Positions 6,791 to 31,564 are shown, numbered from the stretch's first letter. The stretch: DNA of 64,000 nt from Elusimicrobiota bacterium (GCA_026388095.1 JAPLKL010000041.1:36016-100015); one strand, 5' to 3'. Translations and numbers: made by a program. Notes: a model not told the origin generated them from the sequence alone.

Positions 6791-6831
6791 TTCTTTCCCC
6801 CTTGGTCGTGTGTGTGAGTATATCAAAAAAT

Positions 6832-7953: not shown

Positions 7954-7965
7954 ATCTATGCCGCC

Positions 7966-9906: not shown

Positions 9907-9993
9907 GTCAGATGTCCTCTCGGTTCGTCACGCTAAGGTCCCTCGGGATGTCCGGTCCCGGGCGGGTCCTGCCGCCGGCCACCCGCCCGCAGG

Positions 9994-10371
9994 TCAACCG
10001 CCAGGCGTCCGGCGCGACAGGAGCTGCTTGATGCGGATGGACAGCTCGGCCAAGTCGAAGGGCTTGGTGATGTACTCGTCGGCGCCCAGTTCGAAGCCCT
10101 GCTTCTTCTCCTCAGAGGAAAGGAAGCGTCCGGTCATCATGATGAGGATGGTCTGGCGCGAGCGCTTGCGCAGGGTCTGGCAGATCTGGAAGCCGCTGGA
10201 GTCCGGCAGCTGGATATCCATGATGACGACGTCAGGATCGACCTTCTTGGCCGCCTCGATGCCGGAGTGGGCCGCGCCCGCCTGGGTGCATTCGAATCCC
10301 TCCAGCTCCAGGACCTCGGCGAGGCTCTCGCGCAGGTGCGCGTCGTCGTCGATGATGAGCAGCTTGGCCAT
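9994..10371 (-). CDS. Single-domain CheY-like response regulator.
   Basis: The sequence MAKLLIIDDDAHLRE...DVVIMDIQLPDSSG...ITKPFDLAEL is a canonical receiver domain with no output domain. Confidence 0.85.
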   Translation of the reverse strand: MAKLLIIDDDAHLRESLAEVLELEGFECTQAGAAHSGIEAAKKVDPDVVIMDIQLPDSSGFQICQTLRKRSRQTILIMMTGRFLSSEEKKQGFELGADEYITKPFDLAELSIRIKQLLSRRTPGG

Positions 10372-10372
10372 G

Positions 10373-16590: not shown

Positions 16591-18878
16591 TTGGGCGCCG
16601 TCCCCGGCGGCGGGGGGCCTCCGCCGGAACCCTTCTTCTTCTTGGTCTCGTCGCTCTCGTACATCTCGCGCGGCATCTTGATGCCCTTGAGTTTGAACTC
16701 CTCATGGAAGCTCGGGACGTAGTCCTGGCCCGTGTAGTAGCCGACGCTGCGGCCCTGCTCGTCCACGGACACCTGCTTGAACCGGAAGATGTCCTTGGTC
16801 TTGACCTGGTTGCCGTCCTTGCCCGTGATCTCCGTGATGTAGGTGACCCGGCGCTTGCCGTCCGAGAAGCGGGTGATCTGCACGATCATATGGACGGCGC
16901 TGGAGATCATGTCGACCAGGACGCTCATGGGCAGTTCGGTGCCCGAGAACAGGCACATGGCCGAGAGGCGCGAGACGGCGTCGTTGGGGGTGTTGGCGTG
17001 GATGGTGGCCAGCGACCCTTCGTGGCCGGTGTTCATGGCCTGGAGCATGTCCAAGGCCTCGCCGCCGCGGCACTCGCCGACCACGATGCGGTCGGGGCGC
17101 ATGCGCAGGCAGTTCTTGACCAGGTCGCGGATGGTGATCTCGCCCTTGCCCTCGATGTTGGGCGGCCGGCTCTCCAGGCGCACCCAGTGCTCCTGCATGA
17201 GCTTGAGCTCGGCCGTGTCTTCCACCGTGACGATGCGCTCGTCCTCCGGGATGAAGTTGGAGAGCATGTTGAGGAAGGTGGTCTTGCCGGTGCCGGTGCC
17301 CCCCGAGATGATGATGTTCTTGCGCAGCAGCACGCAGTCCTTGAGGAACTCGATCATGTCCGGGGAGACCGAGCCGAAGCCGATGAGCTGCTTGTAGGTG
17401 AAGGGCTTGGCCGAGAAGCGCCGGATGGTCAGGCTGGGCCCGGAGACGGCCAGGGGCGCGATGATGGCGTTGACGCGCGAGCCGTCCTTGAGGCGGGCGT
17501 CCACCAGCGGCACCGACTCGTCGATGCGCCGGCCGATGGGGGCCACGATGCGCTTGATGACCTGGATGACCTGCTCGTCGCTGCGGAAGCGGTTGGGCAG
17601 GAGCACCAGCTTGCCGGCCCGCTCGATGTAGATGTGGTCGAAGGAGTTGACCATGATCTCGTTGACGGTGGGGTCGCGCATGAGGGCCTGCAGGGGCCCC
17701 AGGCCCAGGATCTCGTCGACCAGCTCGCCGACGAACTGCTCGCGCTGCGCGCGCGAGAGCGGCAGGTTCGCCTCCCGCTGCAGGAGGTTCTCGATGATGG
17801 AGGAGACCTTCTTGTGGTTCTCGTCGTTCTGCCCCACGTCGTCCGAGATGCGGATGCGCTCGGTCTCCATGGCGGTCACGACCTGCTTGTGCATCTTGGT
17901 CTTGAGCTCGTCCCAGAACTCCGGGATCCCCGCGGCGGCCGCCGCCCCCGCCCCCGCGGTCTTGTTCGTCTCCGCCGCCGCGGTCTTCGCGGCGGTGCCG
18001 CCGCCCGCGCTGCCCTGGGGCTTCCAGAGGAAGTCGGCGCCCTCGCTGAACTCCTCGGCCGGCATGTAGCTCTCCCAGGACTTCGGGGTGGGCTTGAGCT
18101 CCATGGTCCGGCCCAGGATGATGCGCAGGGTCTTGACCCACTCGCTCTGCAGGTTCTCGACCACGAGGATCTTCTGGGTGTTGGCGTACTCGGGGAGCAG
18201 GTCCTCCCAGGGCATGTAGGCCAGGACCTTCTTCTGCATGGCGCTGAAGAACCGGTCGACCTCCTTGGGCGCCAGCGCCCCGGGGAGGTTCGCCGCGTTG
18301 ACGATGACCTCGAACTTCTCCAGGGGGAAGTGCAGGGCCTTGATCTCCTGGAACATGTTGTAGGTGGCCTCGAAATGGGCGCGTTGGGGCAGACAGACCC
18401 AGTAGATGAGGTCGGCCAAGTCGAAGGAGAAGATCTGCATCGGGAAGAAGGGGTCCACGTCCAGGAACAGGTCGTAGGCCTCGGCGAGCGAGCCCAGGAT
18501 CTGCACCACCAGCTGCGGGGAGAGGCTCAGAATCTCGGAGCGCTTGGCGGCCAGGGGCAGCAGGCCGACCCCCCACTGGGTCATGGGGATGCGGCCCTTG
18601 AGGAGCCTGCCCAGGCCGGTGGGGTTGTCCCCGACGAGCTGCGCCATGCTGGCCACGGTCGGCGGGTTGACCCCGAGCAGGTAGGAGATATCGTTGCGGC
18701 AGAGGGGGTCCATGTGGACGATGATGACCTTCCGGTTCTGGCTGCCGGCCCAGGCCAAGGCCAGGTTGAGGCACAAGGTGGTCTTGCCGACCCCTTCCTT
18801 GGGGCCGGTGAACACGAGCACCCGGCTCGGCTCCTTGGCGAGCCGCCCGGTCTCAGTCTCGGGCTTGACTTCTGCCAT
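16587..18878 (-). CDS. Fusion of a TadZ/CpaE-like ParA/MinD-type ATPase domain with the CpaF/TadA secretion ATPase (VirB11/PilB family).
   Basis: The N-terminal ~280 aa carry a deviant Walker A motif ([17 protein letters not shown]). An Ala/Gly-rich linker follows. The C-terminal half has the CpaF Walker A ([15 protein letters not shown]), Walker B ([12 protein letters not shown]), the Asp box and the His box ([12 protein letters not shown]). Confidence 0.85.
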
Positions 18879-18890
18879 GACGGCGCTCCC

Positions 18891-19643
18891 TTATTTGACG
18901 ATCTCCATGGTGATGAACAGGAACAGCGAGGACTGCGTCTCCACGACGCTCGAGCTGGTGAAGAGCAGTCCCAGAATCGGGATCCGGCCTATATAGGGTA
19001 CGCGCGTCTTGGTCACGTTCTTGGTGCTCGACTTCAGGCCCCCCAAGACCAGCGTCTCGCCGCTCTTGATCTCGACCGAGGTCTGGATCTGGCGGGTGAC
19101 GAAGGACGGCACCGTGGTGTTGCCCACCTGCACGGGCTTGGAGTAGTCCGGGTTGGAGACCTCCAGCTGCAGCTCCGCGCGGATGGTGTCCTTCTTGTTC
19201 GGGTTGATGACCGGCATGATGTTGAGGATGACCCCGTACTTCTTGAGCTCGACTCCCACGCTGCCCGTGGCCCCGGTCACCGGATAGGGCTGCTCGCCGC
19301 CGACCACGAAGTTGGCCTGCGATTGGGCCTGCACGATGACCTTGGGATTGGAGAGCAGCTGCGCCTTGCCTTCGGTCTCCAGCATCTTCAGCGAGGCCTG
19401 CAAGGCGGTCTGCCGGGCGAAGTCCCCGATCTTGTATATGCCGGGGATCTCCTTCTCCGCGAAGTTGATGCCGCTCTGCAAAGGTCCCCATGTGAAACCC
19501 GTGGACACATCCTTGGAGCCGGAAAGCTCCACGATATCCGCCGAGACCGCCACGAGGGAATCCTCGGGCTGGGCCCAGAGCTGCGCGCCGCCCAAAAGCA
19601 GCGCCAGCGAAAGCGACAGACGCCCTGACAGTTGTCTCAGCAT
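18891..19643 (-). CDS. cpaC: Secretin of the CpaC/RcpA family (outer-membrane channel of the Tad pilus); a short form.
   Basis: The signal peptide is MLRQLSGRLSLSLALLLGGAQLWAQP. The secretin C-domain carries hallmark motifs (VVGGEQPYPV, VSNPDYSKPVQVGNTTVPSFVTRQIQTSVEIKSGETLVLGGL, VPYIGRIPILGLLF). Confidence 0.8.
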   Translation of the reverse strand: MLRQLSGRLSLSLALLLGGAQLWAQPEDSLVAVSADIVELSGSKDVSTGFTWGPLQSGINFAEKEIPGIYKIGDFARQTALQASLKMLETEGKAQLLSNPKVIVQAQSQANFVVGGEQPYPVTGATGSVGVELKKYGVILNIMPVINPNKKDTIRAELQLEVSNPDYSKPVQVGNTTVPSFVTRQIQTSVEIKSGETLVLGGLKSSTKNVTKTRVPYIGRIPILGLLFTSSSVVETQSSLFLFITMEIVK

Positions 19644-19688
19644 GATGTCGTACCGTTGCGGCTCGAAACGCCTCTACGTCAGGTCCGG

Positions 19689-20444
19689 CTACTTGAACAG
19701 CTTGCGGAAACTCGCCATCTCCATCGGATGCATCTCCACGTCGCCCAGACCCCGCAGGACCACGGTCGTGTCGCCCTGCTTCATGGCCAAGGACAGGTAC
19801 TGCGCCTCGTTGGGGTTGAGCGCCAGCGCGATCATGGCCTTCTCCGAGAAGGCCGCGGTCTTGTCCTCCTTGTCCGTGGCGACCTTGGCCTGCTTGGCGT
19901 TCATCCCCTGGCCGAGGTTCGTCCCCACCGCGATGACCAGGACGTTCTGCAGGATGGTCGCCGTCACCCGCTCCTTGCGGCCGTCCGCCATCACGGCCTC
20001 GAAGGTCACCAGGACGTCCACGCGGTCGCCCGGCTTGATGAGGGGCTTGAGCTCGTTCTCGATGCCCAGGATGGCGCCGCGATAGCCCGGCGGGATCTTG
20101 ACGCTCAGGCCGGCCTCGGGAGACAGGGAGATCAGCGCCGACTGGCAGATCTGGTTGCCCTTGGGGACACGCACCCGGGTGACCAGGTTGGCGATGAGCT
20201 TGATGTCGGCCGGAGTCTTGACCTCGAAGGCGTCCTGCTCCATGAACTTGCGCGGGACCTGCATCGGCTCGGCCATCTCCTCCTTGAGCACGGTGCGCTC
20301 CGGGATGTCCACGCGGGCGACCAGGACCTGGCCGGTTTCATAGGCCGAGGAAAGCGCCCGCTCCTTGCTCGTGAGCACCATCAAGTAGAAGATGGCGGCC
20401 CCCATGGCCAGCACCATCGGCACCAATATCCCTTTCTTTTCCAT
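19689..20444 (-). CDS. cpaB: Flp pilus assembly protein CpaB/RcpC (SAF domain).
   Basis: There is an N-terminal TM (ILVPMVLAMGAAIFYLMVL), a SAF-like domain (LVARVDIPERTVLKEEM), and a C-terminal RcpC β-domain. Confidence 0.85.
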   Translation of the reverse strand: MEKKGILVPMVLAMGAAIFYLMVLTSKERALSSAYETGQVLVARVDIPERTVLKEEMAEPMQVPRKFMEQDAFEVKTPADIKLIANLVTRVRVPKGNQICQSALISLSPEAGLSVKIPPGYRGAILGIENELKPLIKPGDRVDVLVTFEAVMADGRKERVTATILQNVLVIAVGTNLGQGMNAKQAKVATDKEDKTAAFSEKAMIALALNPNEAQYLSLAMKQGDTTVVLRGLGDVEMHPMEMASFRKLFK

Positions 20445-20447
20445 AGT

Positions 20448-20915
20448 TCAGAAGGCCAGAGGCCTCTCGATGGGCATGCGCACCTCCGCCGAGATTGTGC
20501 ACCAGCCCCCGCCCGGCCCCTGCGGGCAGAGGATCGGCGACGACATCAGGATGCTGCTCAACGGGAAGACGAACTTGATCGGGTTGCTTCCCGTCACCAC
20601 GAGGTCTGCGTTGGTGACCTGCGCCTGAGTGTCCTGGAAGGAGTGGTAGTCCAAGGTGCAGGACACGGTCGCGGACTGGAGGATGCGTTTCATCAGAGGC
20701 ACCAAGCGGCCGCAGTCAGGCAACACCGTGCCGCTGGAGAGGCATTGGGTCATGGCCCCGATGCGGGCCACCTCGTAGGTGGCGTGGTTGAGCAGGATCA
20801 TCTGGAACGACATGTAGCCCATCTCCATGATCGTGAAGACGATGGTCAGGAAAATAGGCAGGACGAGGAGCATCTCCACGAGAACCTGCCCATGTTTCCA
20901 TCCCCTCTTCGACAC
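20448..20915 (-). CDS. TadE-like pseudopilin.
   Basis: The N-terminus MSKRGWKHGQVLVEMLLVLPIFLTIVFTIMEMG is a TadE-family N-terminal domain. Confidence 0.8.
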   Translation of the reverse strand: MSKRGWKHGQVLVEMLLVLPIFLTIVFTIMEMGYMSFQMILLNHATYEVARIGAMTQCLSSGTVLPDCGRLVPLMKRILQSATVSCTLDYHSFQDTQAQVTNADLVVTGSNPIKFVFPLSSILMSSPILCPQGPGGGWCTISAEVRMPIERPLAF

Positions 20916-20983
20916 GACCCCCCCTCGGGGCCCTCGCGGGCCCGCGTCTTTGCGTCAAACGGCGAGGCTGCAGCCTGCGGCTC

Positions 20984-21190
20984 TTAGTTGCCCTGCCCCA
21001 ACGACGTGGCGGCGCCTGAGATCATCTGCTGGATCGAGCTGAACAGACCCGGCATGAACCGCTTGAGCGCCACCCCGGCCACCAGCACGACGCCCACGAC
21101 CACCGTCAGCATCAGCAGATACTCTACGGTGTTCTGACCTTTCCGGCTCTTGAGCCACTTGCGCGCCGCTTCCACTCTCATCGTCATCAT
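20984..21190 (-). CDS. flp: Flp/Fap-family type IVb pilin (prepilin).
   Basis: The sequence MMTMRVEAARKWLKSRKGQNTVEYLLMLTVVVGVVLVAGVAL has a short basic leader, a G/xxxxEY processing motif and a hydrophobic helix. AGGAG lies 10 nt upstream of the ATG at 21190. In-frame ATGs also occur at 21187 and 21181. Confidence 0.75.
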   Translation of the reverse strand: MMTMRVEAARKWLKSRKGQNTVEYLLMLTVVVGVVLVAGVALKRFMPGLFSSIQQMISGAATSLGQGN

Positions 21191-21212
21191 ACGTTTCGCT
21201 CTCCTTGCACGA

Positions 21213-21380
21213 TCAGTAATAGGTCGAAAGAATCTTCTTGCCGGCCAGGATGAACAGCAGCTTCAACTGCCCCTGGATGAACCCGTACATGGCCGCGAAG
21301 CACGTCACCAAGACCATCGTGGTCAGGATGTACTCGACCGCAGCCTGTCCTTTCCGCCATCCCGGCATCTTCAGAGCCAT
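21213..21380 (-). CDS. flp: Second Flp-family pilin (55 aa), not in the ORF track because it is under 60 aa.
   Basis: Manual translation gives MALKMPGWRKGQAAVEYILTTMVLVTCFAAMYGFIQGQLKLLFILAGKKILSTYY*. It has the same leader-GQ-xxVEY-hydrophobic-helix architecture as the adjacent pilin. An alternative in-frame ATG at 21389 would give MTYMALK... Confidence 0.6.
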   Translation of the reverse strand: MALKMPGWRKGQAAVEYILTTMVLVTCFAAMYGFIQGQLKLLFILAGKKILSTYY

Positions 21381-21442
21381 GTACGTCATTGAGTGTATCA
21401 GCCACGGTTTTCCTTGTCAATAACCTTTCCATTAAAAATACA

Positions 21443-22417
21443 TTAAAACTTGACCTTAAAGGAGAATTGGTCGACGGTGCCGAGAGCTCCGTAAGGGACG
21501 TAGGCATAGTCCAGGGCGATGCCGTACCCGAAGGCCCGCGAGGTGAACAGCCCGAAACCGAAGGAAAGACCGGCGGTCCGGTCCATGCGCAGGTTCTTGA
21601 GCGTGCCGTCGAAGCTCTGGCCCAGGGTGTCCGCGTTGTAGTACCCCGCCCGGAACGTGACCTGCCCGACGTCGAGATACTGCTCGGGGAGCATGAATTC
21701 CCCGCCCACGCCGAAATGGGCTCCCGAGTCGGAGGCCTCATTGAGCTCCAGGCCGATATTGAAGAAGTCTCCCAGCCGCAGGGCCGCCCCGCCCCGCGTC
21801 GTGGCGGGGACGTTCTCCTTGTTGGTCCCGAAGTTCTGCACCGCGAATCCCAAGGTCAGCACGCTGTTGGGCTTGAGCAGGACGCCGAAATCGCCGACGA
21901 CCGTGTCGTGCACGCGGCTGGCGAGGTCCTCATGGACCAAGCGCACCGCGCCGCCCAGGAACAGCTTCTCGTACCAGAACGACCGCGCCATGCCGATGGA
22001 GCCGAATCCGTCGCGCACATTGATGTTCTCGCCGGTCTGGGGTACGCCGTTGGCGTCGCGCACGTCGAAGCCCGATACGCTCATGTAGGCGATGTTGGCG
22101 CCCCAGACCGTGCGGCCCATGGGATGGGCGTAGCCCAGATAGAGGGGCGAGTCCGTGTCCTGGACGTAGCGCAGGTAGGAGTAGACCAACTCCTTCTGCT
22201 GGGTCAGGGCCAAGCCGGCGGGGTTCCAGGTCAAGGCGTCGGCGCCCTCGGCCAAGGCCACGTAGGCCTTGCCCAGGGCCTGGGCCCGCGCCGAGCCCTG
22301 CTGGAGCTCCATGAACTGGGCGCCGCTGGTGCCGGCTTGATCGGAGATGGCCCAAGCCGCGGCCGGGCCGCCGAGCAGCCAGACGCATGCGAGCAGGGCC
22401 GTTATCCCGAGTCTCAT
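21443..22417 (-). CDS. Outer-membrane beta-barrel protein, PorV/PorQ/FadL-like.
   Basis: The signal peptide is MRLGITALLACVWLLGGPAAAWA. The conserved N-terminal motif GSARAQALGKAYVALAEGADALTWNPAGLA matches the PorV/PorQ/FadL-like barrel family. Alternating hydrophobic β-strands follow, and the C-terminus is an aromatic residue (FSFKVKF). The start abuts the stop of the giant upstream gene. Confidence 0.65.
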   Translation of the reverse strand: MRLGITALLACVWLLGGPAAAWAISDQAGTSGAQFMELQQGSARAQALGKAYVALAEGADALTWNPAGLALTQQKELVYSYLRYVQDTDSPLYLGYAHPMGRTVWGANIAYMSVSGFDVRDANGVPQTGENINVRDGFGSIGMARSFWYEKLFLGGAVRLVHEDLASRVHDTVVGDFGVLLKPNSVLTLGFAVQNFGTNKENVPATTRGGAALRLGDFFNIGLELNEASDSGAHFGVGGEFMLPEQYLDVGQVTFRAGYYNADTLGQSFDGTLKNLRMDRTAGLSFGFGLFTSRAFGYGIALDYAYVPYGALGTVDQFSFKVKF

Positions 22418-25400
22418 CGCACCAGGAATTTCTTCACCGTCTGCAGGATGTTCCTGCTGCCGTCCGTGGCTTCGGCCCGGAATACCGCGTAGTACAACCC
22501 GCGCGCCACCCGGCGGCCGGCGGAGTTGGAGCGGGTCCAGGCGAAGCACGGGACGCCGCCCGCCGTGGAGCCCCCGCTGACGTAGTTATTGGCCTGCTGC
22601 TCCCCGAAGTCCTTGTCCAGGACCAGCTCGCCGCTCATGGTGTAGAGCTTCATCTTGACGTCGGCCTGGAACGGCGAGAAGATGACGATGTTGGCGCTGT
22701 CGCCGTCCACGGGGTTGGGGTAGATGTAGGTGTTTCGCTCGAAATCCCCTTTGGGATCAGCGGACTGGTTGCGCACCACGGCGACCTCGTCGAGCGGCCG
22801 GTCCTCGGCCAGCTCCAGCGGGAAGATCACGTTGCCCGTCATATTGTCGATGGCGCTCATGTCCGTCGAAGCCACGATGCTGAATTTGTAATTCCCGTCG
22901 GGGGTCGCGCCCAGGCGCAGATCGGTGCCGTCCCAGGTCTCGGTGACCTCCGTGCGGCCCGGCCGCACGCCCACGATGCGCTTGACCAATGACACGGCCT
23001 CGGGCGGCGACGGGTTGCCGTTGCCGTCGAAGACGGTCCCTGGGCGGTAGATCTTGACCGACACCTTCATGGTCGCGGAGACCTGGTAGAGGATGCGCGC
23101 CCCCTCCGAGCCGTTGGTCAGCGGCGCGATGGCCACGTCGTAGATGCGCAGCGGGTCGTAGGCGATGGTCATCTGGGCCGTGGAGGGCTGGTTGAGCTGG
23201 GAGGCCACGTCCTGGGCCACGCCGCGCACCAGGTAGAAGCCGGACGGCGGGAAGTTGCCCTTGTCGTCCCGGCCGTCCCAGACGTCCTCCAGCAGCAGGC
23301 CGCCGTCGCGCACTCCCCCCAAGATGACCGAACGCACGACCTGGTTGGGGACGTTGTTGTTGAGGATCTGGATGGTGACCGAGGATTGGCGGGTGAGTGC
23401 GTAGCTGATGGTGAAGGGGTCCAAAGTGATGCTGGAGCTGGAGTTGAACATCTGCGGCACGGTCGGAGTCACGTTGAAGGTGGTGAAGATGATCGCGCCG
23501 CGGCTGACGGTCACGCTCCCGAAGACCCGGTCCGTGGCGTAGTACTGGGGAGTCGTCGTGGACTGCGCGACCAAGGTGAAGACGTAGCTGCCGTCCGGGA
23601 CCAGCAGTCCGTTGGCGTCCCGGCCGTCCCAGTATTCGGTGATGCGCATGCGGCCGGGCCGCATCCCGTGGTAGCTGATGAGGGGCCCGATCTTGCCGCC
23701 TTGGGAGTCCACGGTGTTGTCGCAGACGGTGGTGGACATGCCGCAGGGCGGCCAGGTGGAGGTGCTGTTCTTGATGACCGTGCCCGGGGAGTAGATGTTC
23801 CACACCACGTTCATGGGCTGGGAGAGTTGATAGTTGAGCGAGACCGAATCCGAGGTCCCGGCCATGAGCGGCGTGGTCACCACGTCCGTGATGCGGAACA
23901 GGTCAACCGGGAAAGACGACGACACCGTCGAGACCTTCATGGTGCACAAAGGGTCCGCGGCGGTCAGCTGGACGATGTAAGTGCCCGAAGTGACCCAACG
24001 GCCGGTGTTGTCCACCGCGTCGCCCCATATCTCCTGGTTGGCGAACAAGCCGGGCCGGACCACGTTTTCGGCGAGGGTCCTGACCAAAGTGGTCCCGTCG
24101 GCCTGGAAGATCTTCACGCTCGCGATGGCGTCGCGGCCGAGCTGATACCGGAACACGAAGGGATTGAGGCCGCTGATGGCCGGGCTGGAGCCGATGACGG
24201 TGGGGCTGGCGGCGATCTGGCTGAGGCCCACGTTGCCCCGCACCACCGGCATGAAGCCAGTCTGGGCCTTGGTCGTCCAGATGCGGCGGTCTTGCACGCT
24301 GCTGATGAAGGGGCTCCCGTTCTGCGAGGGCAGGGCGGCGTAGATCACGAAGACGTAGTCGCCGTCCGTGCAGACCGCGTTGCCGTTCATGTCCCGGCCG
24401 TCCCAGAAGGTCAACGCGGAGCCGCGGCCGGCCTTGATCTCCTCGAAATGGCGCACCAGGGGAGCCGGGGACGAGTTCGGGCCGGTGCAGGCGCCTATGT
24501 AGGGTTTGAAGTCCTTGGGTCCGTGCACCCACTCGAACCCGCCGGAGATGACTGGGCCCGCCCGGTCCAGGTTGACCGGGTCATTGACATTGTTGAGGTT
24601 GCCGCAGAACTGGGTGTTAGGAGGATAGATGTCTATATACACCGTCGCCGGCTCGGTGAGGGTGTAGCTCAAAGTCGCCAAAGACGTCGCTGAGCCCGCC
24701 AGAGGCGCGACCCTGAGGTCCGTGATCTGGAGGGGGTCCAAGCTGATCTGCCGCGTGGTCGGGTAGGACAGGTCGCCCCCGTACTGGTCAACGGCGAAGG
24801 CCTGCAAGGTCGCCAGGAACACCCCGGGGGGCAGGAGATCCCCGTTGTCTGCGCGGCCGTTCCAGGCATCGCCGTTGAGCAAGGTCCCGTTGGGCGTGCC
24901 CTCGCCCACGCGCGCCACGCCCGGCAGCACGGAGCGCAGCACCGCGCCGCTGTCCGGGTCGGTGACGGTGATGTACATCGAGGCGTCCTTGGAGAGCCGG
25001 TAAGTGATGTTGTAGGGCTCCACGTAGACCCCGGCGCTGCCCACCACCGTGGGAGAGGAGCGCACCACGTGCACGTTGGTGACGTCCACCTGCACGGGCT
25101 TCTGCAGGACGAAGAGCGCGTTGGCATCCATGGTGGCTCCCGCCGGATAGGCGCGCTGGGCCGTGATGGTGATGTTGCCGCTGGAGCCGGTCTGGTTGGT
25201 CTGGGCCGTGATGCGGAATCCGTACTGTCCGTTGGTCTTGCCCAACTCGCCCTGGATGCTGACTGCGCCGTCCCAGAGCACGCAGTAGGGTTTCACACCG
25301 CTCGTGGTGGAGTTGGTGTAGGGAGCCAGGACCCCGGGGGCGTCCACGAAGAAGGTGCGGATCGGCGGGGTGGAGCCCGCATCCAGGGGGTTGGCCCCGT

Positions 25401-25911
25401 CCTGGAACTTGAAAATCTCGAACTCCACCATGTCCAGGGCCACGGTGTCGGAGCCCGGGTTGTTGTAGCCGATCCCGGCGCAGAGGAAGACGTCGGAGTT
25501 GCAGATGTTGTTGCCGTTGACTGCGTCGCCGGCAGGGGAGTTGGCGGCGTCGCAGTTGGACAGCACCGTGGAGCTGCGCTGGTCGAACTCGATGTGGGGG
25601 TCGTTGGAGATGTTGCCATTCTGCGGCTGCAATCCCGAGACATCAGTGGGCGAAGTCGGGTTGATGTCCCCGCAATAAGTGGTGCCGCCCAGTTGGCAGT
25701 TGGACGAGCCGTCCAGACAGAAGAAGTGCTTCGTGAACGCATTATAATAGCAGTAGAAGCCGCTGTCCTTGACCACGAAGGACTGATCGATGAAGAGCTG
25801 GACCTGGCCCTGAGCGAAGAGGCGGGAGGGCAGGAGGAGGGACAGGAGGGCGGCGCCGTAGAAAGCCTGCGCCGCCCCCATGCCGCTTCGATGTCGGTTC
25901 ATAGAACGCAT
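22414..25911 (-). CDS. Giant secreted protein (~1165 aa) with six FlgD-Ig-like repeats and a T9SS-type (Por_Secre_tail-like) C-terminal sorting domain.
   Basis: The signal peptide is MRSMNRHRSGMGAAQAFYGAALLSLLLPSRLFAQG, followed by a Cys-rich N-terminal region. Six repeats carry the W(D/N)GRDxxGxxxPxGxYxF motif (TFWDGRDMNGNAVCTDGDYVFVIY, EYWDGRDANGLLVPDGSYVFTLVA, DVWDGRDDKGNFPPSGFYLVRGVA, ETWDGTDLRLGATPDGNYKFSIVA and others). The C-terminal ~90 aa (YIYPNPVDGDSANIVIF...VKMKLYTMSGELV...RGLYYAVFRAE...KKFLVR) match the T9SS sorting-domain consensus. The ATG at 25911 is chosen; a GTG lies at 25914. Confidence 0.8.
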   Translation of the reverse strand: MRSMNRHRSGMGAAQAFYGAALLSLLLPSRLFAQGQVQLFIDQSFVVKDSGFYCYYNAFTKHFFCLDGSSNCQLGGTTYCGDINPTSPTDVSGLQPQNGNISNDPHIEFDQRSSTVLSNCDAANSPAGDAVNGNNICNSDVFLCAGIGYNNPGSDTVALDMVEFEIFKFQDGANPLDAGSTPPIRTFFVDAPGVLAPYTNSTTSGVKPYCVLWDGAVSIQGELGKTNGQYGFRITAQTNQTGSSGNITITAQRAYPAGATMDANALFVLQKPVQVDVTNVHVVRSSPTVVGSAGVYVEPYNITYRLSKDASMYITVTDPDSGAVLRSVLPGVARVGEGTPNGTLLNGDAWNGRADNGDLLPPGVFLATLQAFAVDQYGGDLSYPTTRQISLDPLQITDLRVAPLAGSATSLATLSYTLTEPATVYIDIYPPNTQFCGNLNNVNDPVNLDRAGPVISGGFEWVHGPKDFKPYIGACTGPNSSPAPLVRHFEEIKAGRGSALTFWDGRDMNGNAVCTDGDYVFVIYAALPSQNGSPFISSVQDRRIWTTKAQTGFMPVVRGNVGLSQIAASPTVIGSSPAISGLNPFVFRYQLGRDAIASVKIFQADGTTLVRTLAENVVRPGLFANQEIWGDAVDNTGRWVTSGTYIVQLTAADPLCTMKVSTVSSSFPVDLFRITDVVTTPLMAGTSDSVSLNYQLSQPMNVVWNIYSPGTVIKNSTSTWPPCGMSTTVCDNTVDSQGGKIGPLISYHGMRPGRMRITEYWDGRDANGLLVPDGSYVFTLVAQSTTTPQYYATDRVFGSVTVSRGAIIFTTFNVTPTVPQMFNSSSSITLDPFTISYALTRQSSVTIQILNNNVPNQVVRSVILGGVRDGGLLLEDVWDGRDDKGNFPPSGFYLVRGVAQDVASQLNQPSTAQMTIAYDPLRIYDVAIAPLTNGSEGARILYQVSATMKVSVKIYRPGTVFDGNGNPSPPEAVSLVKRIVGVRPGRTEVTETWDGTDLRLGATPDGNYKFSIVASTDMSAIDNMTGNVIFPLELAEDRPLDEVAVVRNQSADPKGDFERNTYIYPNPVDGDSANIVIFSPFQADVKMKLYTMSGELVLDKDFGEQQANNYVSGGSTAGGVPCFAWTRSNSAGRRVARGLYYAVFRAEATDGSRNILQTVKKFLVR

Positions 25912-25965
25912 CACCCTAGCAGTGCCAAAATAGCCTAAATCTGTTTCCGGAGTATTACCGGCATG

Positions 25966-27975
25966 TTAAAAAATTGTGAAGAGGCGCCAGCCGACTCGGT
26001 AGCGCGCCAGCGCGAAGCCCTGCCGCCGCGCCGACGGCCCCGCGAGCACCAGGATATCCTCGGTCTTCGACCCGGCCCCTGCCCCGTCAGCCTGGGCCGC
26101 CGTCAAGCCGACGACGTTCTCATCCAACGCGACGGCCCAGGCCGGCGCGAAGGCTTCGTTGGCGAGGTCGAACGCCATGAGCCGCCGGCTGCGGGAATCC
26201 CAGAGCCAGAGGCGGCCCCCCAGCCACTGCATGGCGGCGGGCAGGACGTCGGCTTCCAGCGGATAGGCCTTGGCGTCGGTCTCCTCGGCTCCGTGCCGGT
26301 AGAGGCGCTTGTTGAAGGCGTCGTAGGACCACAGGGCCTGGCCGTCCCAGGCGAGCGCCGTGGGCGCGGGCCCGGGCGCCGGCTTGGCGTAGAGCACGGT
26401 CCCGGGGTCATCCGGCTGGTGGCGGACGATGCGGGCCTGGGCGGCGTCCAAGGTGTAGAACCGCTCTCCGCCCAAGGCCAGGGCCACGGGTCGGTAGGCG
26501 CCGATGCCTGAGACGCTCGCGCTGCTCACGGGCGCCCGGAGGTCCGCAGGGTCGAAAGCCTCCAGGGTCCCCTTCCAATCCGACACCCACAGGCGCTTCC
26601 CGTCGGACGCCAGCGCGGTCGGGTGGTCCAGAGCCAGGCCGCGGGTGGTCAGCGGCTTGAGGCTCCATGCGCTCAGCCAGCGTCCCAGAGGCCACGCCGC
26701 GGCCAGGAGCAGGCCCGCCGCGACCGCCGCCGGCCCGAGCCAGCGCCGCCGCGGCGCGGCGGCGCGCAAGGGCGCGCCGTCCCCGGAGGGCTGGCGTTCT
26801 CCGTTCCCGGAGGGGGCCGGGAGCTTGCGCTCCAGCTCGGCGACGCGTTCCATCACCGCGGCCAGCTTCTGGGAAGCGGCCGAAGCCTCGGGCAGGCTGC
26901 GCGCAAGCTGCTCCGCGGGCTTGACCGGGGCTTGGTCTTTGGCCGAAACCTCGGCGCGCGAGGCCTCGCGCTCCTTGCGCAGGCCCTCTTCCCAGGCCGA
27001 CCGTTCCTGGCGCAGGCTCTCATCCCGGGCGGCGAGCTCGAGGCGCCGGGCCTCCCAGGCCTCGCGCTCCTTGCGCAGGTTCTCCTCCCACGCGGCGAGC
27101 TCGAGGCGCCGGGCCTCCCAGGCCTCGCGCTCCTTGCGCAGGTTCTCCTCCCAGGAGGAGAGCTCGAGGCGCCGGGTCTCCCGGGCCGAGCGCTCCTGGT
27201 CCCAGAGCTCGCGCCACTGCCCGCGCTCCTTCTCCCAGACGCGGGAGAGATCCTCGCAGCGCCCTTCCACCTCCGCGATCCTCTTGACCGCCTGGGATTG
27301 CTCGCCTTCGGACTCCTGATGCGCGTGCCGCTCGCGCAGGAGCTCGGCCAGCGTCTTCTCCAGGGCCGCTTGGGTCTGCTCGAGGCCCGTCGAGAGGCGC
27401 GCCGCCGCGTCCTCGGCCCGCTGGGAATCCTCCTGGCGGCGGGCGGCCGCAGCCTGGAGCTCCTGCAGGTCCAGCAGATACTGCTGCTCTTTCTTCTCCC
27501 AGCGCCGCTGCTCCTCTCGCCAGCGGGCGCCTTCGGCTCCGGCCGATTCGCGCGCGGCGTCGACCAGGGCCTTGAGGTCCCGGCGCTCGGCCTCGTGCGC
27601 GGCGCGCTCGTCGGCGAGGGCCTTCTGCGCGGCCTCCAAGCGGGAGCCCACGTCGAGGACCTCGGCGACCACGAGCTCGTCGTCGGCGCGCACCTTCTGG
27701 CGCAGGGAACCCAGCTCGGTCTCCAGCAAGGCTTGGCGTTCCTTCAGGGCGCGCAGCGCCTTTTCCCGGGCCTCCAGGAGCTCGTGCCAGCGGGCTTCCT
27801 GGCGGCGGTACTGGCTCTTGAGCATGGCCACCGTCTCCCAGGCCACTTCGTTGGCCGTGGCCACGGATGCGGCAGGCGTCGGCGCGGGGTCGGCCGGGGC
27901 GGCGGAGGCCGCGCCGACCTTCTCCCAGAGCCGGCTGATCTCCTTGTGCAGGTCGTCCGGAGAGGCTTTTTCCAC
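25966..27975 (-). CDS. Bitopic membrane protein with a long cytoplasmic coiled coil (tandem 21-aa repeats) and a periplasmic beta-propeller-like C-terminal domain.
   Basis: The start is a GTG (MEKASPDDLHK...). The first ~400 aa are charged coiled coil with the repeated unit RRLELAAWEENLRKEREAWEA. A single TM (LGPAAVAAGLLLAAAWPLGRWL) follows. The C-terminal ~200 aa have W-rich repeat motifs (LWVSDW, LWSYDAFNKRLYRH, RLWLWDSRSRRLMAFDL). Confidence 0.65.
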   Translation of the reverse strand: MEKASPDDLHKEISRLWEKVGAASAAPADPAPTPAASVATANEVAWETVAMLKSQYRRQEARWHELLEAREKALRALKERQALLETELGSLRQKVRADDELVVAEVLDVGSRLEAAQKALADERAAHEAERRDLKALVDAARESAGAEGARWREEQRRWEKKEQQYLLDLQELQAAAARRQEDSQRAEDAAARLSTGLEQTQAALEKTLAELLRERHAHQESEGEQSQAVKRIAEVEGRCEDLSRVWEKERGQWRELWDQERSARETRRLELSSWEENLRKEREAWEARRLELAAWEENLRKEREAWEARRLELAARDESLRQERSAWEEGLRKEREASRAEVSAKDQAPVKPAEQLARSLPEASAASQKLAAVMERVAELERKLPAPSGNGERQPSGDGAPLRAAAPRRRWLGPAAVAAGLLLAAAWPLGRWLSAWSLKPLTTRGLALDHPTALASDGKRLWVSDWKGTLEAFDPADLRAPVSSASVSGIGAYRPVALALGGERFYTLDAAQARIVRHQPDDPGTVLYAKPAPGPAPTALAWDGQALWSYDAFNKRLYRHGAEETDAKAYPLEADVLPAAMQWLGGRLWLWDSRSRRLMAFDLANEAFAPAWAVALDENVVGLTAAQADGAGAGSKTEDILVLAGPSARRQGFALARYRVGWRLFTIF
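27034..27222. repeat. In-frame 63-bp tandem repeat array inside the coiled-coil gene: two perfect copies at 27034-27096 and 27097-27159, with degenerate flanking copies.
   Basis: The unit GAGCTCGAGGCGCCGGGCCTCCCAGGCCTCGCGCTCCTTGCGCAGGTTCTCCTCCCACGCGGC repeats exactly twice. Diverged copies lie at about 26971-27033 and 27160-27222. The array encodes the 21-aa unit of the coiled coil. Confidence 0.85.
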
Positions 27976-28069: not shown

Positions 28070-30004
28070 ATGATATCATGGCCGCTGATGGACCGCGAAG
28101 AATCCTCCCCCTGGAGTTGTCTCATCGCGGCCGCCCTCCTGGCCCAGATGCTCTGGCTCGGGGCCAACACGGCCTACGATCCGGACACTTGGTGGCACCT
28201 CAAGACCGGGCAGCTGGTCTTCCAGACCCATTCCATCCCCACGCGCGACCCCTACTCCTACGTCCTGGCGGGCCGGCCCTGGACCACCTTCGAGTGGCTC
28301 TTCCAGGTCGTCATCTACCTCGCCTACGCCGGGGCCGGCGCGGCCGGCGTGGCCGCGCTGCGCGTGGGCCTGCTGGCCGGAGCATTCCTGCTCCTCCTGC
28401 GCTTGGCGGGCGGCGGGTTCTGGGCCGGCATCCTGACTTCTTTGGCCGCGCTGGCGGCCAGGGATTTCTTCGTGACCAGACCGCAGGTCTTCGACTACCT
28501 CCTGCTCGTATTCTATCTCTCGGTGGTCGACCGCTGCCGCGGCCGGCCGGGCCGCCTGGCCTGGCTGCTGCCCGGCCTGCAGGTCCTCTGGGTCAACCTC
28601 CACGGAGGGGCGGCGCTTCTGGGAGTGGGGTTAGTGGGACTCAGAGCGGCGGTCGCCGCCCTGCCGGGACAGAGGCAAGACAGAGCCCTGGGGCCCTGGC
28701 TGACCCTGACCGGAGCCTGCCTGGCAGCCATGCTCGTCAATCCCCACGGGCCCGGGATATTCACCCATGCCTACGCGACCCTCTTCTTCCCCGGCCAGGA
28801 GCTGATCAACGAATGGCGGCCGGTGGCCTCTCTGCTGAGTTGGCAGGGGGCGTGCCTCGCCGTGGGGGCCGTGGCCGCGGTCTGGTCCTGGGAGTCCGAA
28901 CCGCACCTGGCTCTGACCGCTTTGGTCCTGGGCGTCATGGGCTGCCTCCAGGTGCGGCATGTGTCTTTGGCCATGCTGGCCGCGGCGCCCCTGGCCGCCC
29001 GGCTGCTCGCGCGCCTGCGGCCCGTGCCCATCGGCCGACGCTCGGCCCTGGGCGCCGTCGTGGTGATGGCCGCCTGGTCGGCCCTCTTCATCCATCAGCG
29101 CGTCGGGTACCTGGAGAACGTCGGCGCGGGCCTGGAGGAGCTGCCGGACCGGGCCATCCGGTATCTCGACGACAACGACGTCTCGGGCCGGATGTTCCAC
29201 ACCTACAACATGGGCGGGTATCTCATCTGGAAGACCTGGCCGCGCCGGCAGGTCTTCGTGGACGGCCGCAACGTGGAGTATGGCCCGGACTTCATCGCGC
29301 AGGCTCTGAACTGGACTCGCCCGGAGGTCTGGCCGCGGCTCGACGCCCAGTGGCGGTTCGACTACGCCGTCATCGGGAACTCCCCGGGCTACGTGGCTGA
29401 GGTCCTGGACGACTCGCCGCAATGGGCCCTGGTCTTCTGGGACGACGCGGCCCTGGTGTACCTGAGGCGCACGCCGGCCAACGCCGCCCTCATCCGGCGC
29501 GACGCCTACCGCCTGCTCAAGCCCAACCAACTCACCTTCGCCTATCTCGCCGAGGACCTGCGCGACCGCCGCAAGGCCGCGGCCGTGCTGGCCGAACTCG
29601 ACCGCTCCGTGCGATCTTCGGACCGCAACGTGGACGCCTGCCAGATGCGGGCCTACGTCCTCTCCGAGCTGGGCCGCCCCGCGGACGCCGTCCGGGACCT
29701 GCAGGGCGTCATCCGACGCTTCCCGCGCAAGCCCGGCCCGTACATGTCTCTGGGCTGGTTCCATGAGCGGGCGGGACGTCTTTTGGCGGCGCGGCAGGTC
29801 TACGAGGAAGGGGTGCGCATGGCGAAGTGGAACTCGGACCGGACCTCGCGGGCCTTTCTGGAGAATAACCTCGGATCCATCGAGCTGCGGCTCGGCAACC
29901 GCGAACGCGCCCGCGAGCTGTTCGAGGACTGCTTGGCGCTGGAGCCCAGCCATCCCCAGGCTCGGCGCAACCTCCAGATCTTGGATCAGTCCGCTAAGAA
30001 GTAG
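28070..30004 (+). CDS. Polytopic GT-C-type membrane protein (glycosyltransferase-like) with C-terminal TPR repeats.
   Basis: About 10 predicted TM helices span the first ~330 aa. A periplasmic domain follows (YNMGGYLIWKTWPRRQVFVDGRNVEYGPDF). The C-terminus carries TPR repeats (DACQMRAYVLSELGRPADAVRDLQ..., LENNLGSIELRLGNRERARELFEDCLALEPSHP). Confidence 0.65.
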   Translation: MISWPLMDREESSPWSCLIAAALLAQMLWLGANTAYDPDTWWHLKTGQLVFQTHSIPTRDPYSYVLAGRPWTTFEWLFQVVIYLAYAGAGAAGVAALRVGLLAGAFLLLLRLAGGGFWAGILTSLAALAARDFFVTRPQVFDYLLLVFYLSVVDRCRGRPGRLAWLLPGLQVLWVNLHGGAALLGVGLVGLRAAVAALPGQRQDRALGPWLTLTGACLAAMLVNPHGPGIFTHAYATLFFPGQELINEWRPVASLLSWQGACLAVGAVAAVWSWESEPHLALTALVLGVMGCLQVRHVSLAMLAAAPLAARLLARLRPVPIGRRSALGAVVVMAAWSALFIHQRVGYLENVGAGLEELPDRAIRYLDDNDVSGRMFHTYNMGGYLIWKTWPRRQVFVDGRNVEYGPDFIAQALNWTRPEVWPRLDAQWRFDYAVIGNSPGYVAEVLDDSPQWALVFWDDAALVYLRRTPANAALIRRDAYRLLKPNQLTFAYLAEDLRDRRKAAAVLAELDRSVRSSDRNVDACQMRAYVLSELGRPADAVRDLQGVIRRFPRKPGPYMSLGWFHERAGRLLAARQVYEEGVRMAKWNSDRTSRAFLENNLGSIELRLGNRERARELFEDCLALEPSHPQARRNLQILDQSAKK

Positions 30005-31564
30005 TCAGGGCGCAGGCTCGACCTGGAGACGGTAGTCCTCGGGGTCCAATGCCGCGGCTGTGACATAGTCCCTTTGCGCGCCGGGGTCGCGGCGGGCGTC
30101 GCGCAGCGTCCCGTCGAGGTAATGGGCGAAGGCGTAGCTGAGCAGGATGTCGCGCACGTAGCTCTCCTCCCGTTGCAAGGCCTGGCCGCGCCTGAGCGCG
30201 GAGAATTCCCAGGCCGGGCCTTGGGGCTCGGCGCTCTGGACCAAGCCGGCCGGGTGCAGGCTCTCCTGGCTCATGCCCATGGCCGCCAGGTTGGCCAGAG
30301 AGAGTCCCAGGACGAAGCGCGGCCGGACGCCCGGTTGCGCGTCCTTGTAGAAGACCAGCCTGCGGCCTTGGCCGTCCGGATGCGCCAGGTCGAGGTAGCG
30401 CGAGGCGTAGAGGGCTGTGTCGCCTCCGACCACGGCCGTGCTGCCCGGAGGCAGGGCCCGGCGCAGGTCCTTGGCGTAGTCGTAGGCCGAGAAGTCGTCG
30501 CGGTGGCAGCAGTCGGCCGCGTTCTGCCACAACGAGCCGGCCACGGCGGCCGCGCCCAGCAGCAACCCGGCCGCCTGCTTGCGCCGCATGAGCCACGCCA
30601 GGCCGAAGCCCGAGCAGAGGCAGACCACGACCGCGGGCGCGACCAGGGCCGATTCCATGACGGTGCGCGCCACCCAGCCGCTGAGGTCGAAGCGTGTGGC
30701 CAGGAAGAAGGCCGGGCCGAAGCCCAGGAAGACGAGGAGCAGGCCGGCCGCGAAGCGCCGGCTGATGCGCCAGGCCTGCCAGGCTCCCAGCGCGGCCAGG
30801 CCCAGGACCACGGGGGACATGCCCTGCCAAAGGGCTTTGCAGAAATATCCCAGCAGGCTCGCTGCCAGGGGCAGGCTGAGGGGGCGGCTCAAGCCCGCGG
30901 AGAGCTGGAAGGTCCCGTATTCCTGCCTCGTGAACATGGCCCAGGCGCGGCCCAGGCTGCCCAGGTTCGCCCACAGGAACAGATACGGGGAGAGGCCCAG
31001 CAGGAAGAGCGGCAGGCAGGCCTTGACCAGGAACCGGCGGTTATCAGCGGCGGAAAGTTCCCCCCACCACAGCACGGCCAGGCCGGGCACGGCAAGGACG
31101 AAGGCCTGGTGGTTGGCCAGACCCAGACCGAGGAGCAAGGCGCTTGCGGCCAGGCGCCGCCACCTGGTCGCATCCTCCTGCCCGGGCCCCGGGGCCAGGA
31201 GCAGCAGGAGCGCGAGGCACAAGCCATGCAGAGAGTACATCTCGCAGAGCAGGCTGAACTTCCACAAGGGGGCGCTGAAGGCCAGGGCCAAGGCCGCGGC
31301 CAGGGCGGGCAGGAGGCCGCAGGACCGGGACAGGAGCAGGAACACGGTCGTGGCGCAGCCGGCCCCGGCAGCGGCGGACATGAGGTTGAGCCTGTAGGCC
31401 GGGTCGCCCCAGGGCATAAGGAAGAGCCACGCCTTGCCCAGCAGGACGTAGAGCGGATAGCCGGGAGGATGCGCGGGCATGAAGGCCAGCACCGCGCTGG
31501 CCAGGTCGCCGCTGTCGCGGGGCGCGACGGTGGGATAGGCCGTGTACGCGTAAGTCGCGAACAC
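30005..31564 (-). CDS. DUF2723/TMEM260-like membrane protein (putative protein O-mannosyltransferase-like GT-C enzyme).
   Basis: The N-terminal signature AYPTVAPRDSGDL...AHPPGYPLY is characteristic of DUF2723, and multiple TM helices follow. The track start at 31564 is a GTG. The upstream in-frame sequence (TTAALVFLGVF) looks like a TM segment, so the true start may be an upstream non-ATG codon. Confidence 0.65.
   Translation of the reverse strand: MFATYAYTAYPTVAPRDSGDLASAVLAFMPAHPPGYPLYVLLGKAWLFLMPWGDPAYRLNLMSAAAGAGCATTVFLLLSRSCGLLPALAAALALAFSAPLWKFSLLCEMYSLHGLCLALLLLLAPGPGQEDATRWRRLAASALLLGLGLANHQAFVLAVPGLAVLWWGELSAADNRRFLVKACLPLFLLGLSPYLFLWANLGSLGRAWAMFTRQEYGTFQLSAGLSRPLSLPLAASLLGYFCKALWQGMSPVVLGLAALGAWQAWRISRRFAAGLLLVFLGFGPAFFLATRFDLSGWVARTVMESALVAPAVVVCLCSGFGLAWLMRRKQAAGLLLGAAAVAGSLWQNAADCCHRDDFSAYDYAKDLRRALPPGSTAVVGGDTALYASRYLDLAHPDGQGRRLVFYKDAQPGVRPRFVLGLSLANLAAMGMSQESLHPAGLVQSAEPQGPAWEFSALRRGQALQREESYVRDILLSYAFAHYLDGTLRDARRDPGAQRDYVTAAALDPEDYRLQVEPAP

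Follow-up and report, generated by a model that had tools for sequence, protein, structure and literature searches.

The 64,000-nucleotide (nt) stretch of DNA analysed here, referred to as the window (JAPLKL010000041.1, 36016–100015, from Elusimicrobiota bacterium GCA_026388095.1), is a high-GC stretch (~65%) of an Elusimicrobia genome, and all named homologs of its genes come from metagenome-assembled genomes (MAGs) of Elusimicrobia/Elusimicrobiota. Its minus strand carries a tightly packed gene block (11710–27975) running from a coiled-coil protein of 669 amino acids (aa), here called cc669, through a conserved membrane protein that is HAMP-like in some orthologs. Within this block a giant secreted protein with immunoglobulin (Ig)-like repeats and an outer-membrane beta-barrel of the PorV/PorQ family are encoded immediately ahead of the genes of a Tad/Flp pilus (Table 1). 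An earlier note made from the sequence had described the giant protein as ending in a type IX secretion system (T9SS) sorting domain, and every element that it named is present: the signal peptide, the Cys-containing head, six repeats, the C-terminal domain (CTD), the barrel and the pilins. The giant open reading frame (ORF) of 1166 aa was recovered on the minus strand with the extent given there. The stop codon of the giant gene and the start codon of the barrel gene overlap by 4 nt as ATGA; a check of the sequence confirmed this (barrel ATG at 22417), in agreement with the note. The pilins likewise follow just 3′ of the barrel on the same strand, flpA starting 53 nt after the barrel stop and flpB coming next, both with the G/Q..VEY prepilin motif. 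Here, we report that this giant–barrel–pilus arrangement is invariant in this type of Tad cluster in Elusimicrobia, and we consider whether the first two genes may encode an anchoring pair that displays an Ig rod beside the pilus.

A GTG start gives the giant protein its 1166 aa; an alternative ATG lies at 25911, and a database copy called from Met12 (1155 aa) is 100% identical. An iterated profile seeded on one repeat located exactly six strong repeats, at aa 275–392, 413–532, 565–664, 701–798, 806–918 and 924–1027, with E from 4e-19 to 1e-43, and the Pfam family FlgD_ig (PF13860) is matched with 74 bits against a cutoff of 27, so that the six FlgD Ig-like repeats of the earlier note stand. 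In the N-terminal region eight Cys fall within aa 55–211, six of them nearly invariant among orthologs. An AlphaFold2 (AF2) model of aa 30–400 is all-beta (pLDDT 84, pTM 0.85), the Cys-containing insertion being poorly structured, and PDB searches with the N-terminal head returned only generic Ig/Fn3-type sandwiches, with no catalytic or lectin fold and no ligand-binding homolog. As a whole the giant protein is most aptly seen as about nine beta-sandwich domains in a chain, and the domain count alone suggests a rod ~35–40 nm long.

Orthologs of the giant protein are mostly ~1100–1240 aa in length, keep all six repeats and are 51–80% identical, and the divergence is only ~1.4–1.8 times that of the Tad core proteins. 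This fixed length and sequence conservation is unusual for a free-standing adhesin. The earlier note had considered a pilus-associated adhesin, a role that was not borne out by the unusual conservation in length and sequence or by the N-terminal region with its lack of a ligand-binding homolog. A few orthologs are longer, at ~1850–1880 aa (L068:4305–9947, L069:4371–9926), and in these an extra internal segment weakly matches the CTD profile. Most orthologs are labelled "hypothetical protein", to one NCBI gives the name "T9SS type A sorting domain-containing protein", and several (P0247, P0249, P0265 and others) bear the label "flagellar hook assembly protein FlgD" at the Joint Genome Institute (JGI). 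The last is a misannotation, since it stems from the FlgD_ig domain alone. The giant protein was also considered as a FlgD hook-cap protein and rejected as such, the best FlgD equivalog score being 61.8 bits against a cutoff of 230 with only Ig-like segments aligned.

The CTD (aa ~1060–1166) contains the elements YPNP, KLYT.SGELV, GLYYAVF and KKFLVR. The T9SS type-A sorting domain model TIGR04183 is passed at aa 1064–1114 of 1166 with 28.4 bits against a cutoff of 23, in support of the sorting domain proposed in the earlier note. The profile of the internal repeats matches the CTD with E 0.3 only; because of this weak match, and since the TIGR04183 cutoff is reached, the CTD is not simply a seventh repeat. 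The C-terminus of the PorZ model matches it with E 2.3e-8. When the CTDs of 69 orthologs were scanned one by one against profile families, the PorZ C-terminus matched 66 (best E 1.8e-15), the tail of a T9SS-dependent metalloprotease 64, TIGR04183 61 (E ≤ 0.01) and the C-terminus of the PorU sortase 55. Within the PDB the CTD profile matched the PorU CTD best (6za2, E 5e-5 over 86 residues), and PorZ (5m11) was also among the matches, with a weak E of 0.055. By these comparisons the CTD is T9SS type-A-like and comes closest to those of PorZ and PorU, the two T9SS proteins that keep their CTDs uncleaved (PMC10947112). Because the resemblance is to retained CTDs, a stable anchor pair fits better than the pair of cargo and shuttle-like barrel that had been envisaged before; the domain families named in that proposal stood, and the roles call for revision.

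The barrel matches the PorV/PorQ family model NF033709 over its whole length (model positions 1–326 of 326) with 95.4 bits against a cutoff of 90. Its scores against the equivalog models are 60 bits for PorQ (NF033711, cutoff 220) and 22 bits for PorV (NF033710, cutoff 250), and by this comparison it is closest to PorQ and an ortholog of neither. The earlier assignment as PorV-like is thus upheld at the level of the family and not as an identity with PorV. All 33 orthologs tested match the family model (best E 3.5e-30), with the ranking PorQ > PorV2 > PorV, and some are already named "PorV/PorQ family protein" by NCBI. The sole significant PDB sequence match of the ortholog profile is PorV of F. 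johnsoniae (6h3i_F, E 1.3e-6), in an alignment that runs through the N-terminal motif quoted in the earlier note. Two of the three outcomes which that note had named as damaging to its interpretation did not occur, the CTD being significant by profile hidden Markov model and the barrel being a member of the PorV/PorQ family. The signal peptide of the barrel ends in AWA/I (the slash marking its end); a lipoprotein signal was considered and rejected, since the ortholog consensus does not keep the Cys at position 11 and the sequence has an AxA site for signal peptidase I. Against 1.84 billion representative proteins the barrel profile gave 8165 matches at E ≤ 0.001 and 24 at E ≤ 1e-30, and because of this difference the Tad-linked barrels are seen as a distinct subfamily in a very large PorV/PorQ-like superfamily. 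Those representatives of the subfamily that carry a source name are labelled Elusimicrobia, and an exact-sequence lookup of the window barrel gave no match.

The distribution of the arrangement was followed by a scan seeded from the barrel with one genome per species, which returned 73 loci, all in Elusimicrobia, with barrel identities from 90% down to 41%. Gene order was tested by tblastn with the thirteen proteins of the window wherever the flanks were long enough. The order cc669–giant–barrel–flpA–flpB–tadE–cpaB–secretin–cpaEF–tadB–tadC–TPR–HAMP and its orientation were invariant across these loci, flanks permitting, and an ATG or GTG is found at the -4 overlap position in 65 of the 73. In a reverse search of metagenome contigs that started from CpaB, the barrel and the giant gene lay upstream in 39/39 loci whose upstream sequence spans 2.6 kb or more, including a divergent clade in which the barrel is ~40% and the giant protein 36–45% identical. 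The recurrence of the giant–barrel–Tad arrangement is far beyond chance, and the coupling to a Tad operon that the earlier note had remarked on is thereby borne out in both search directions. Mean pairwise distances were 0.29–0.40 for CpaB, secretin, CpaEF and TadB/C, 0.44 for the six repeats, 0.45 for the barrel and 0.52–0.53 for the giant N-terminal region and the CTD. Every distance matrix correlates with the others (r ~0.7–0.96), those of the barrel and the giant protein with the Tad core at r = 0.8–0.95, and it follows that the two genes have been inherited vertically with the pilus machine. Two of the loci (L009 and L010), both assigned to the MAG NC_groundwater_1678, each hold a complete cluster, with barrels 82% and 84% identical to that of the window; this double cluster is either a real duplication or the product of a mixed bin.

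A search of all ORFs of the orthologous loci with the CTD and barrel profiles revealed a further pair in locus L028, in which a 698-aa NHL-repeat protein with a type-A-like CTD is directly followed by a 299-aa barrel of the PorV/PorQ family. This barrel defines a second well-conserved Elusimicrobia barrel family of ~297 aa, and in 3/3 independent contigs (L080–L082) its members come directly after a protein that bears a TIGR04183/PorZ-like CTD. The CTD proteins of these cassettes differ, measuring 2762, 695 and 363 aa in the three contigs and carrying NHL, fn3 or ZU5 domains, and the two genes overlap by 4 nt in two of the three. None of the second-family pairs, that of L028 included, is part of a Tad gene block. 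Because the second family shows the same pairing, a CTD protein with its own barrel is a recurring two-gene unit in Elusimicrobia.

A bipartite A/T motif, TTTTAAY-N7-TAAT, has just two copies in the 64-kb window, where 0.00 would be expected by chance, one ahead of the giant gene and one ahead of the pilin promoter. In 88 orthologous loci (1.58 Mb) 67 of 68 strict matches fall at one of these two sites. The motif is a candidate binding site and points to a common regulator of the giant and pilin units. The 53-nt gap between barrel and flpA also contains a conserved sigma-70-type promoter, on account of which the pilins are taken to have a strong promoter of their own: TTGACA-17-TA(C/A)ACT keeps its offset in 37 of the 40 orthologous loci listed, and a strict regular expression matches 72 of 115. 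No terminator-like site was found between the giant/barrel and pilin units.

The components by which a Tad/Flp pilus is recognised, namely Flp pilins (G/xxxxEY), TadE, RcpC/CpaB, a secretin, a TadA ATPase and TadB/TadC, lie together in one locus. The secretin consists of the core only and has no N0–N3 domains; it aligns with just the C-terminal ~180 positions of the PilQ and GspD models and has the same size of 250 aa in all orthologous loci. The 763-aa fusion of TadZ/CpaE with TadA/CpaF is likewise kept in all loci. No gene of the RcpB/CpaD type and no TadG gene was recognisable in the cluster. The window encodes three prepilin-type substrates, and no ORF in it contains the prepilin peptidase (TadV/CpaA) motif G.GD[VAILF][KR], nor does any such Pfam family occur among the neighbouring genes; this enzyme may be encoded elsewhere in the genome. 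The membrane protein that closes the syntenic block was assigned no family in profile scans, its ortholog in L001 having a weak HAMP match.

Table 1. Features of the pilus-linked locus, its flanks and the second-family cassettes. Positions are those of the window unless a locus is named; a slash in a peptide marks the end of the signal or leader.
Feature	Position	Strand	Basis or remark
TMEM260-like protein O-mannosyltransferase	30005–31564	-	just upstream of cluster
Polytopic-membrane/TPR protein	28070–30004	+	just upstream of cluster
cc669, 669 aa	25966–27975	-	ORF and translation; directly 5′ of giant gene
Bipartite A/T motif TTTTAAC-N7-TAAT	25954–25971	-	upstream of giant gene; overlaps cc669 stop codon
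Giant secreted Ig-repeat protein, 1166 aa	22414–25914	-	ORF, domain profiles, repeat profile
Signal peptide of giant protein, ...LFA/QGQ	25813–25914	-	
N-terminal Cys-containing beta-sandwich region of giant protein	25105–25812	-	
Six FlgD_ig-type repeats of giant protein	22834–25092	-	
CTD of giant protein, aa 1060–1166	22417–22737	-	TIGR04183, PorZ/PorU models
PorV/PorQ-family outer-membrane beta-barrel, 324 aa	21443–22417	-	NF033709 match
Bipartite motif TTTTAAT-N7-TAAT	21431–21448	-	overlaps barrel stop codon; just upstream of pilin promoter
Sigma-70-type promoter TTGACA-17-TACACT, TG extension	21392–21420	-	consensus scan; barrel–flpA gap
Flp-type pilin A (flpA), 58 aa, ...KG/QAAVEY...	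21213–21389	-	translation, conserved position
Flp-type pilin B (flpB), 68 aa, ...KG/QNTVEY...	20984–21190	-	translation; weak Class_IIIsignal and Flp1_like matches
TadE-like minor pilin	20448–20915	-	PF07811, 43.7 bits
RcpC/CpaB periplasmic ring protein	19689–20444	-	PF16976 RcpC in orthologs; 58–98% identity across loci
Minimal secretin, 250 aa	18891–19643	-	PF00263 the only domain in orthologs
TadZ/CpaE–TadA/CpaF fusion ATPase, 763 aa	16587–18878	-	CbiA and T2SSE in orthologs
TadB-like platform protein	15079–16590	-	PF00482 T2SSF in orthologs
TadC-like platform protein	14171–15082	-	PF00482 T2SSF in orthologs
Secreted TPR protein, 450 aa, at position of TadD in classical tad loci	12819–14171	-	TPR families, conserved position
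Membrane protein, last gene of syntenic block	11710–12822	-	46–98% identity across loci
Regulatory genes: Cache/HAMP histidine kinase, hybrid kinase, LuxR-type regulator and the two of the next rows	6119–11173	-	3′ of cluster
OmpR-type response regulator, atypical N-terminal half	10373–11173	-	
Single-domain receiver	9994–10371	-	
Pair of NHL-repeat CTD protein and barrel	L028:606–3595	-	CTD and barrel profiles
Second-family pair	L080:1716–10891		CTD and barrel profiles
Second-family pair	L081:8907–10906		CTD and barrel profiles
Second-family pair	L082:7917–10900		CTD and barrel profiles

We propose, giving the proposal about an even chance of being right, that the giant protein and the barrel are a cognate anchoring pair of a CTD protein and a FadL-type barrel, similar to PorQ–PorZ, which displays an Ig rod in fixed partnership with the Tad pilus. 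The giant protein, with its signal peptide, would be exported by Sec and fold into about nine beta-sandwich domains, comprising the N-terminal Cys-containing region, the six FlgD_ig repeats and the CTD, the last of which would be a retained T9SS-type sorting domain of the PorZ/PorU kind. With the start codon of the barrel overlapping, the two proteins are probably made in matched amounts. The PorQ-like barrel would bind the CTD non-covalently and keep the rod on the outer membrane, with the less conserved, Cys-containing N-terminal end pointing away from the membrane. So anchored, the rod could be a surface fibril that takes part in attachment together with the pilus, or it could serve the secretin that lacks N domains as an outer-membrane accessory. 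The strict co-inheritance with the Tad genes and the common A/T motif are the reasons for which we infer a fixed functional partnership with the pilus. In Porphyromonas the CTDs of PorZ and PorU stay attached to barrels, PorZ on PorQ, which holds it at the cell surface, and PorU on PorV (PMC10947112), and there is precedent for a cargo gene adjoining the gene of its anchoring FadL-type barrel in SprB–SprF and PG1035–PorP (PMC9143113). A further possibility, which we entertain with considerable doubt, is that the CTD–barrel pair is a self-sufficient module for display or secretion without a T9SS, the rod crossing the outer membrane via the PorQ-like barrel, possibly with the beta-barrel assembly machinery (BAM), or via the Tad secretin and a Flp pseudopilus.

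Several observations weigh against this proposal. CTD proteins in T9SS organisms need the SprA/Sov translocon to reach the surface, and surface exposure of the giant protein is here an assumption. Binding of the CTD by the barrel is presumed; in a mirror-tree analysis with the shared phylogenetic signal removed the correlation was r = 0.29 for CTD and barrel and r = 0.50 for repeats and barrel, which is not specific. The CTD fails the Pfam model PF18962 (Por_Secre_tail), with 19.6 bits against a gathering threshold of 27. The AF2 model of the barrel, built with 33 close orthologs, is poor (pLDDT 52.6) and has ~13 strands as against the 14 of the FadL-type fold, and Foldseek with this low-confidence model returned generic outer-membrane barrels, the best TM-score being 0.44 to the PorV chain of a T9SS translocon complex (8gl6_F). 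The pilins, finally, have their own conserved promoter, so that co-transcription with the giant and barrel genes does not follow from the arrangement.

Other explanations of the pair must be considered. It could be an ordinary T9SS cargo with an ordinary outer-membrane component, a full T9SS (SprA/Sov, PorK/L/M/N, PorU) being encoded elsewhere in the genome and exporting the giant protein, the barrel working like PorV or PorQ of Bacteroidota and the Tad linkage reflecting only co-regulation of surface structures. That the CTD passes TIGR04183 and the barrel the PorV/PorQ family model would then be expected, the other type-A-like CTD proteins in Elusimicrobia suggest a general pathway, and one giant ortholog already bears a T9SS name. 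We hold this to be unlikely: profile scans found no T9SS core gene within the 64-kb window, the barrel lies far below the equivalog cutoffs of both PorQ and PorV, and each CTD protein seen has its own barrel, translationally coupled 1:1, unlike the single shared PorV. Moreover, TXSScan detected T9SS only in Bacteroidetes (PMC4793230), and according to a review of 2024 no T9SS genes occur outside the Fibrobacteres–Chlorobi–Bacteroidetes (FCB) phyla (PMC11285876). Still less probable, in our view by a wide measure, is that the barrel is a FadL-like transporter of small hydrophobic molecules unrelated to the giant protein, the CTD a plain Ig-like domain and their adjacency meaningless. The start/stop overlap is kept in ~65/73 loci, the CTD is specifically PorZ/PorU/TIGR04183-like and not like the internal repeats, and an independent second barrel family pairs with CTD proteins likewise; these facts stand against the weak Pfam matches of the barrel to Toluene_X/FadL and UPF0164, the FadL homologs among the fold matches of its low-confidence model and the label "long-subunit fatty acid transport protein" given by JGI to one distant relative.

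The pair could also be a structural part of the Tad machine, with barrel and rod, fastened by the CTD at or beneath the outer membrane, serving to scaffold, pilot or gate the secretin and the giant protein being periplasmic or membrane-associated instead of surface-displayed. The obligate co-occurrence in both search directions fits such a role, as do the reduction of the secretin to a 250-aa core, the lack of identifiable RcpB/CpaD-type and TadG genes in the cluster, and a giant protein conserved like a machine component, with fixed length and a mean distance of 0.44 for its repeats against 0.29–0.40 for the core. We nevertheless regard it as rather unlikely, since the T9SS barrels that have been studied hold their CTD protein at the cell surface, as in PorQ–PorZ and SprF–SprB (PMC10947112, PMC9143113), a rod of ~35–40 nm by domain count would roughly match or exceed a typical periplasm in length, and the cassettes of the second family are unlinked to pilus genes, so that the pair does not intrinsically need a secretin. 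Alternatively, the Tad-like apparatus may work as a type II-like exporter in which the folded rod, driven by a Flp (pseudo)pilus, passes the minimal secretin and is then caught on the surface by the PorQ-like barrel. The giant gene heads the conserved block and has its upstream motif in common with the pilin unit, and no other translocon is visible in the locus. The idea is an inference only, other CTD–barrel cassettes are not adjacent to Tad genes, and we know of no precedent for Tad systems exporting Sec-dependent periplasmic proteins; as an explanation in its own right we find it quite improbable, and it is one possible route of export within the anchoring-pair proposal.

Among the neighbouring genes, cc669 lies directly 5′ of the giant gene in almost every orthologous locus (26–75% identity) and matches no Pfam or NCBIfam family. 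It has a ~410-aa N-terminal coiled coil predicted to be cytoplasmic, one transmembrane helix at ~aa 413–431 and a periplasmic C-terminal repeat domain of ~235 aa, which may be beta-propeller-like. An extra gene of ~450 aa without counterpart in the window is found 5′ of cc669 in L001 (1288–2634), L005 (2434–3858) and ~48 other loci; its product combines a divergent PorV/FadL-like N-terminal barrel (weak PorV_fam match, E 4.6e-7) with a C-terminal coiled coil of ~150 aa. Just upstream of the cluster lie genes for a TMEM260-like protein O-mannosyltransferase, which recurs upstream in at least 25 of the 51 loci with enough flank, and for a polytopic-membrane/TPR protein that in our reading of its architecture resembles TMTC-type transferases. 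By analogy with the eukaryotic TMEM260 and TMTC enzymes, which glycosylate Ig-like folds, the Ig repeats of the giant protein might be O-glycosylated. The kinases and other regulatory proteins encoded 3′ of the cluster are possible regulators of the locus, and in L082 a response regulator adjoins cc669.

The literature confines T9SS components to Bacteroidota and their FCB relatives, and a PorQ/PorZ-like pair that is universal and vertically inherited in this Tad locus across a broad range of Elusimicrobia bears on that view. Were the more doubtful reading of a self-sufficient module correct, the barrel–CTD "attachment" half of the T9SS would exist apart from the SprA/PorKLMN half, outside the FCB superphylum, and would have been recruited as an obligatory pilus component. 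If the genomes prove to lack SprA and PorKLMN, the anchoring module is able to work, and may have arisen, without the T9SS translocon, with consequences for the way in which the T9SS was assembled in evolution. The pair would also be a new accessory module of Tad pili beside a core-only secretin. The locus also offers a handle on how uncultivated Elusimicrobia of groundwater and sediment attach to surfaces or to other cells. In practical terms, orthologs now carry the label "hypothetical protein" or, in error, "FlgD".

No published description was found of T9SS-like parts in Elusimicrobia or of such parts being linked to a Tad locus; that Elusimicrobia have Tad systems has been mentioned in passing only (PMC6668835). 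The closest known systems are the PorQ–PorZ and PorV–PorU pairs of the P. gingivalis T9SS attachment complex, in which, as here, a barrel of the PorV/PorQ family goes with a beta-sandwich-rich protein anchored by a retained CTD (PMC10947112). The window pair is not orthologous to these, its scores being far below the equivalog cutoffs, and it belongs to Elusimicrobia and not to Bacteroidota; whereas PorZ is a beta-propeller protein, the partner here is an 1166-aa chain with six FlgD_ig repeats, and the two genes, which overlap, form part of a Tad pilus locus, with no Sov/SprA, PorK/L/M/N or PorU sortase in the 64-kb window. SprB–SprF and PG1035–PorP, which have type-B CTDs, are alike in that a large repetitive protein is encoded beside a dedicated barrel, in their case a 14-stranded, surface-anchoring barrel of the FadL family (PMC9143113), and in that several such cargo–barrel pairs occur per lineage, as with the second cassette family in Elusimicrobia. 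They differ in that the CTD here is type-A-like (TIGR04183), the barrel belongs to the PorV/PorQ and not the PorP/SprF family, the context is a Tad pilus and not gliding motility, and the phylum lies outside the FCB group. With the flagellar hook cap FlgD the likeness is limited to the fold and family of the Ig-like domain (PF13860), the equivalog models giving at most 62 bits where the cutoffs are at least 230, and matching single repeat regions only. The tad, cpa and rcp-tad systems of Aggregatibacter, Caulobacter and Pseudomonas share with this locus the pilins, TadE, RcpC/CpaB, secretin, TadZ/TadA, TadB/TadC and TPR protein; here, in contrast, the secretin is a 250-aa core, TadZ and TadA are fused, prepilin peptidase, RcpB/CpaD and TadG are not recognisable in the locus, and the locus invariably adds cc669, the giant gene and the barrel gene, three genes that are absent from every described Tad system. 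The families are individually known, and what we rate as new is a PorQ–PorZ-like anchoring pair outside the FCB superphylum that is fixed within a pilus machine.

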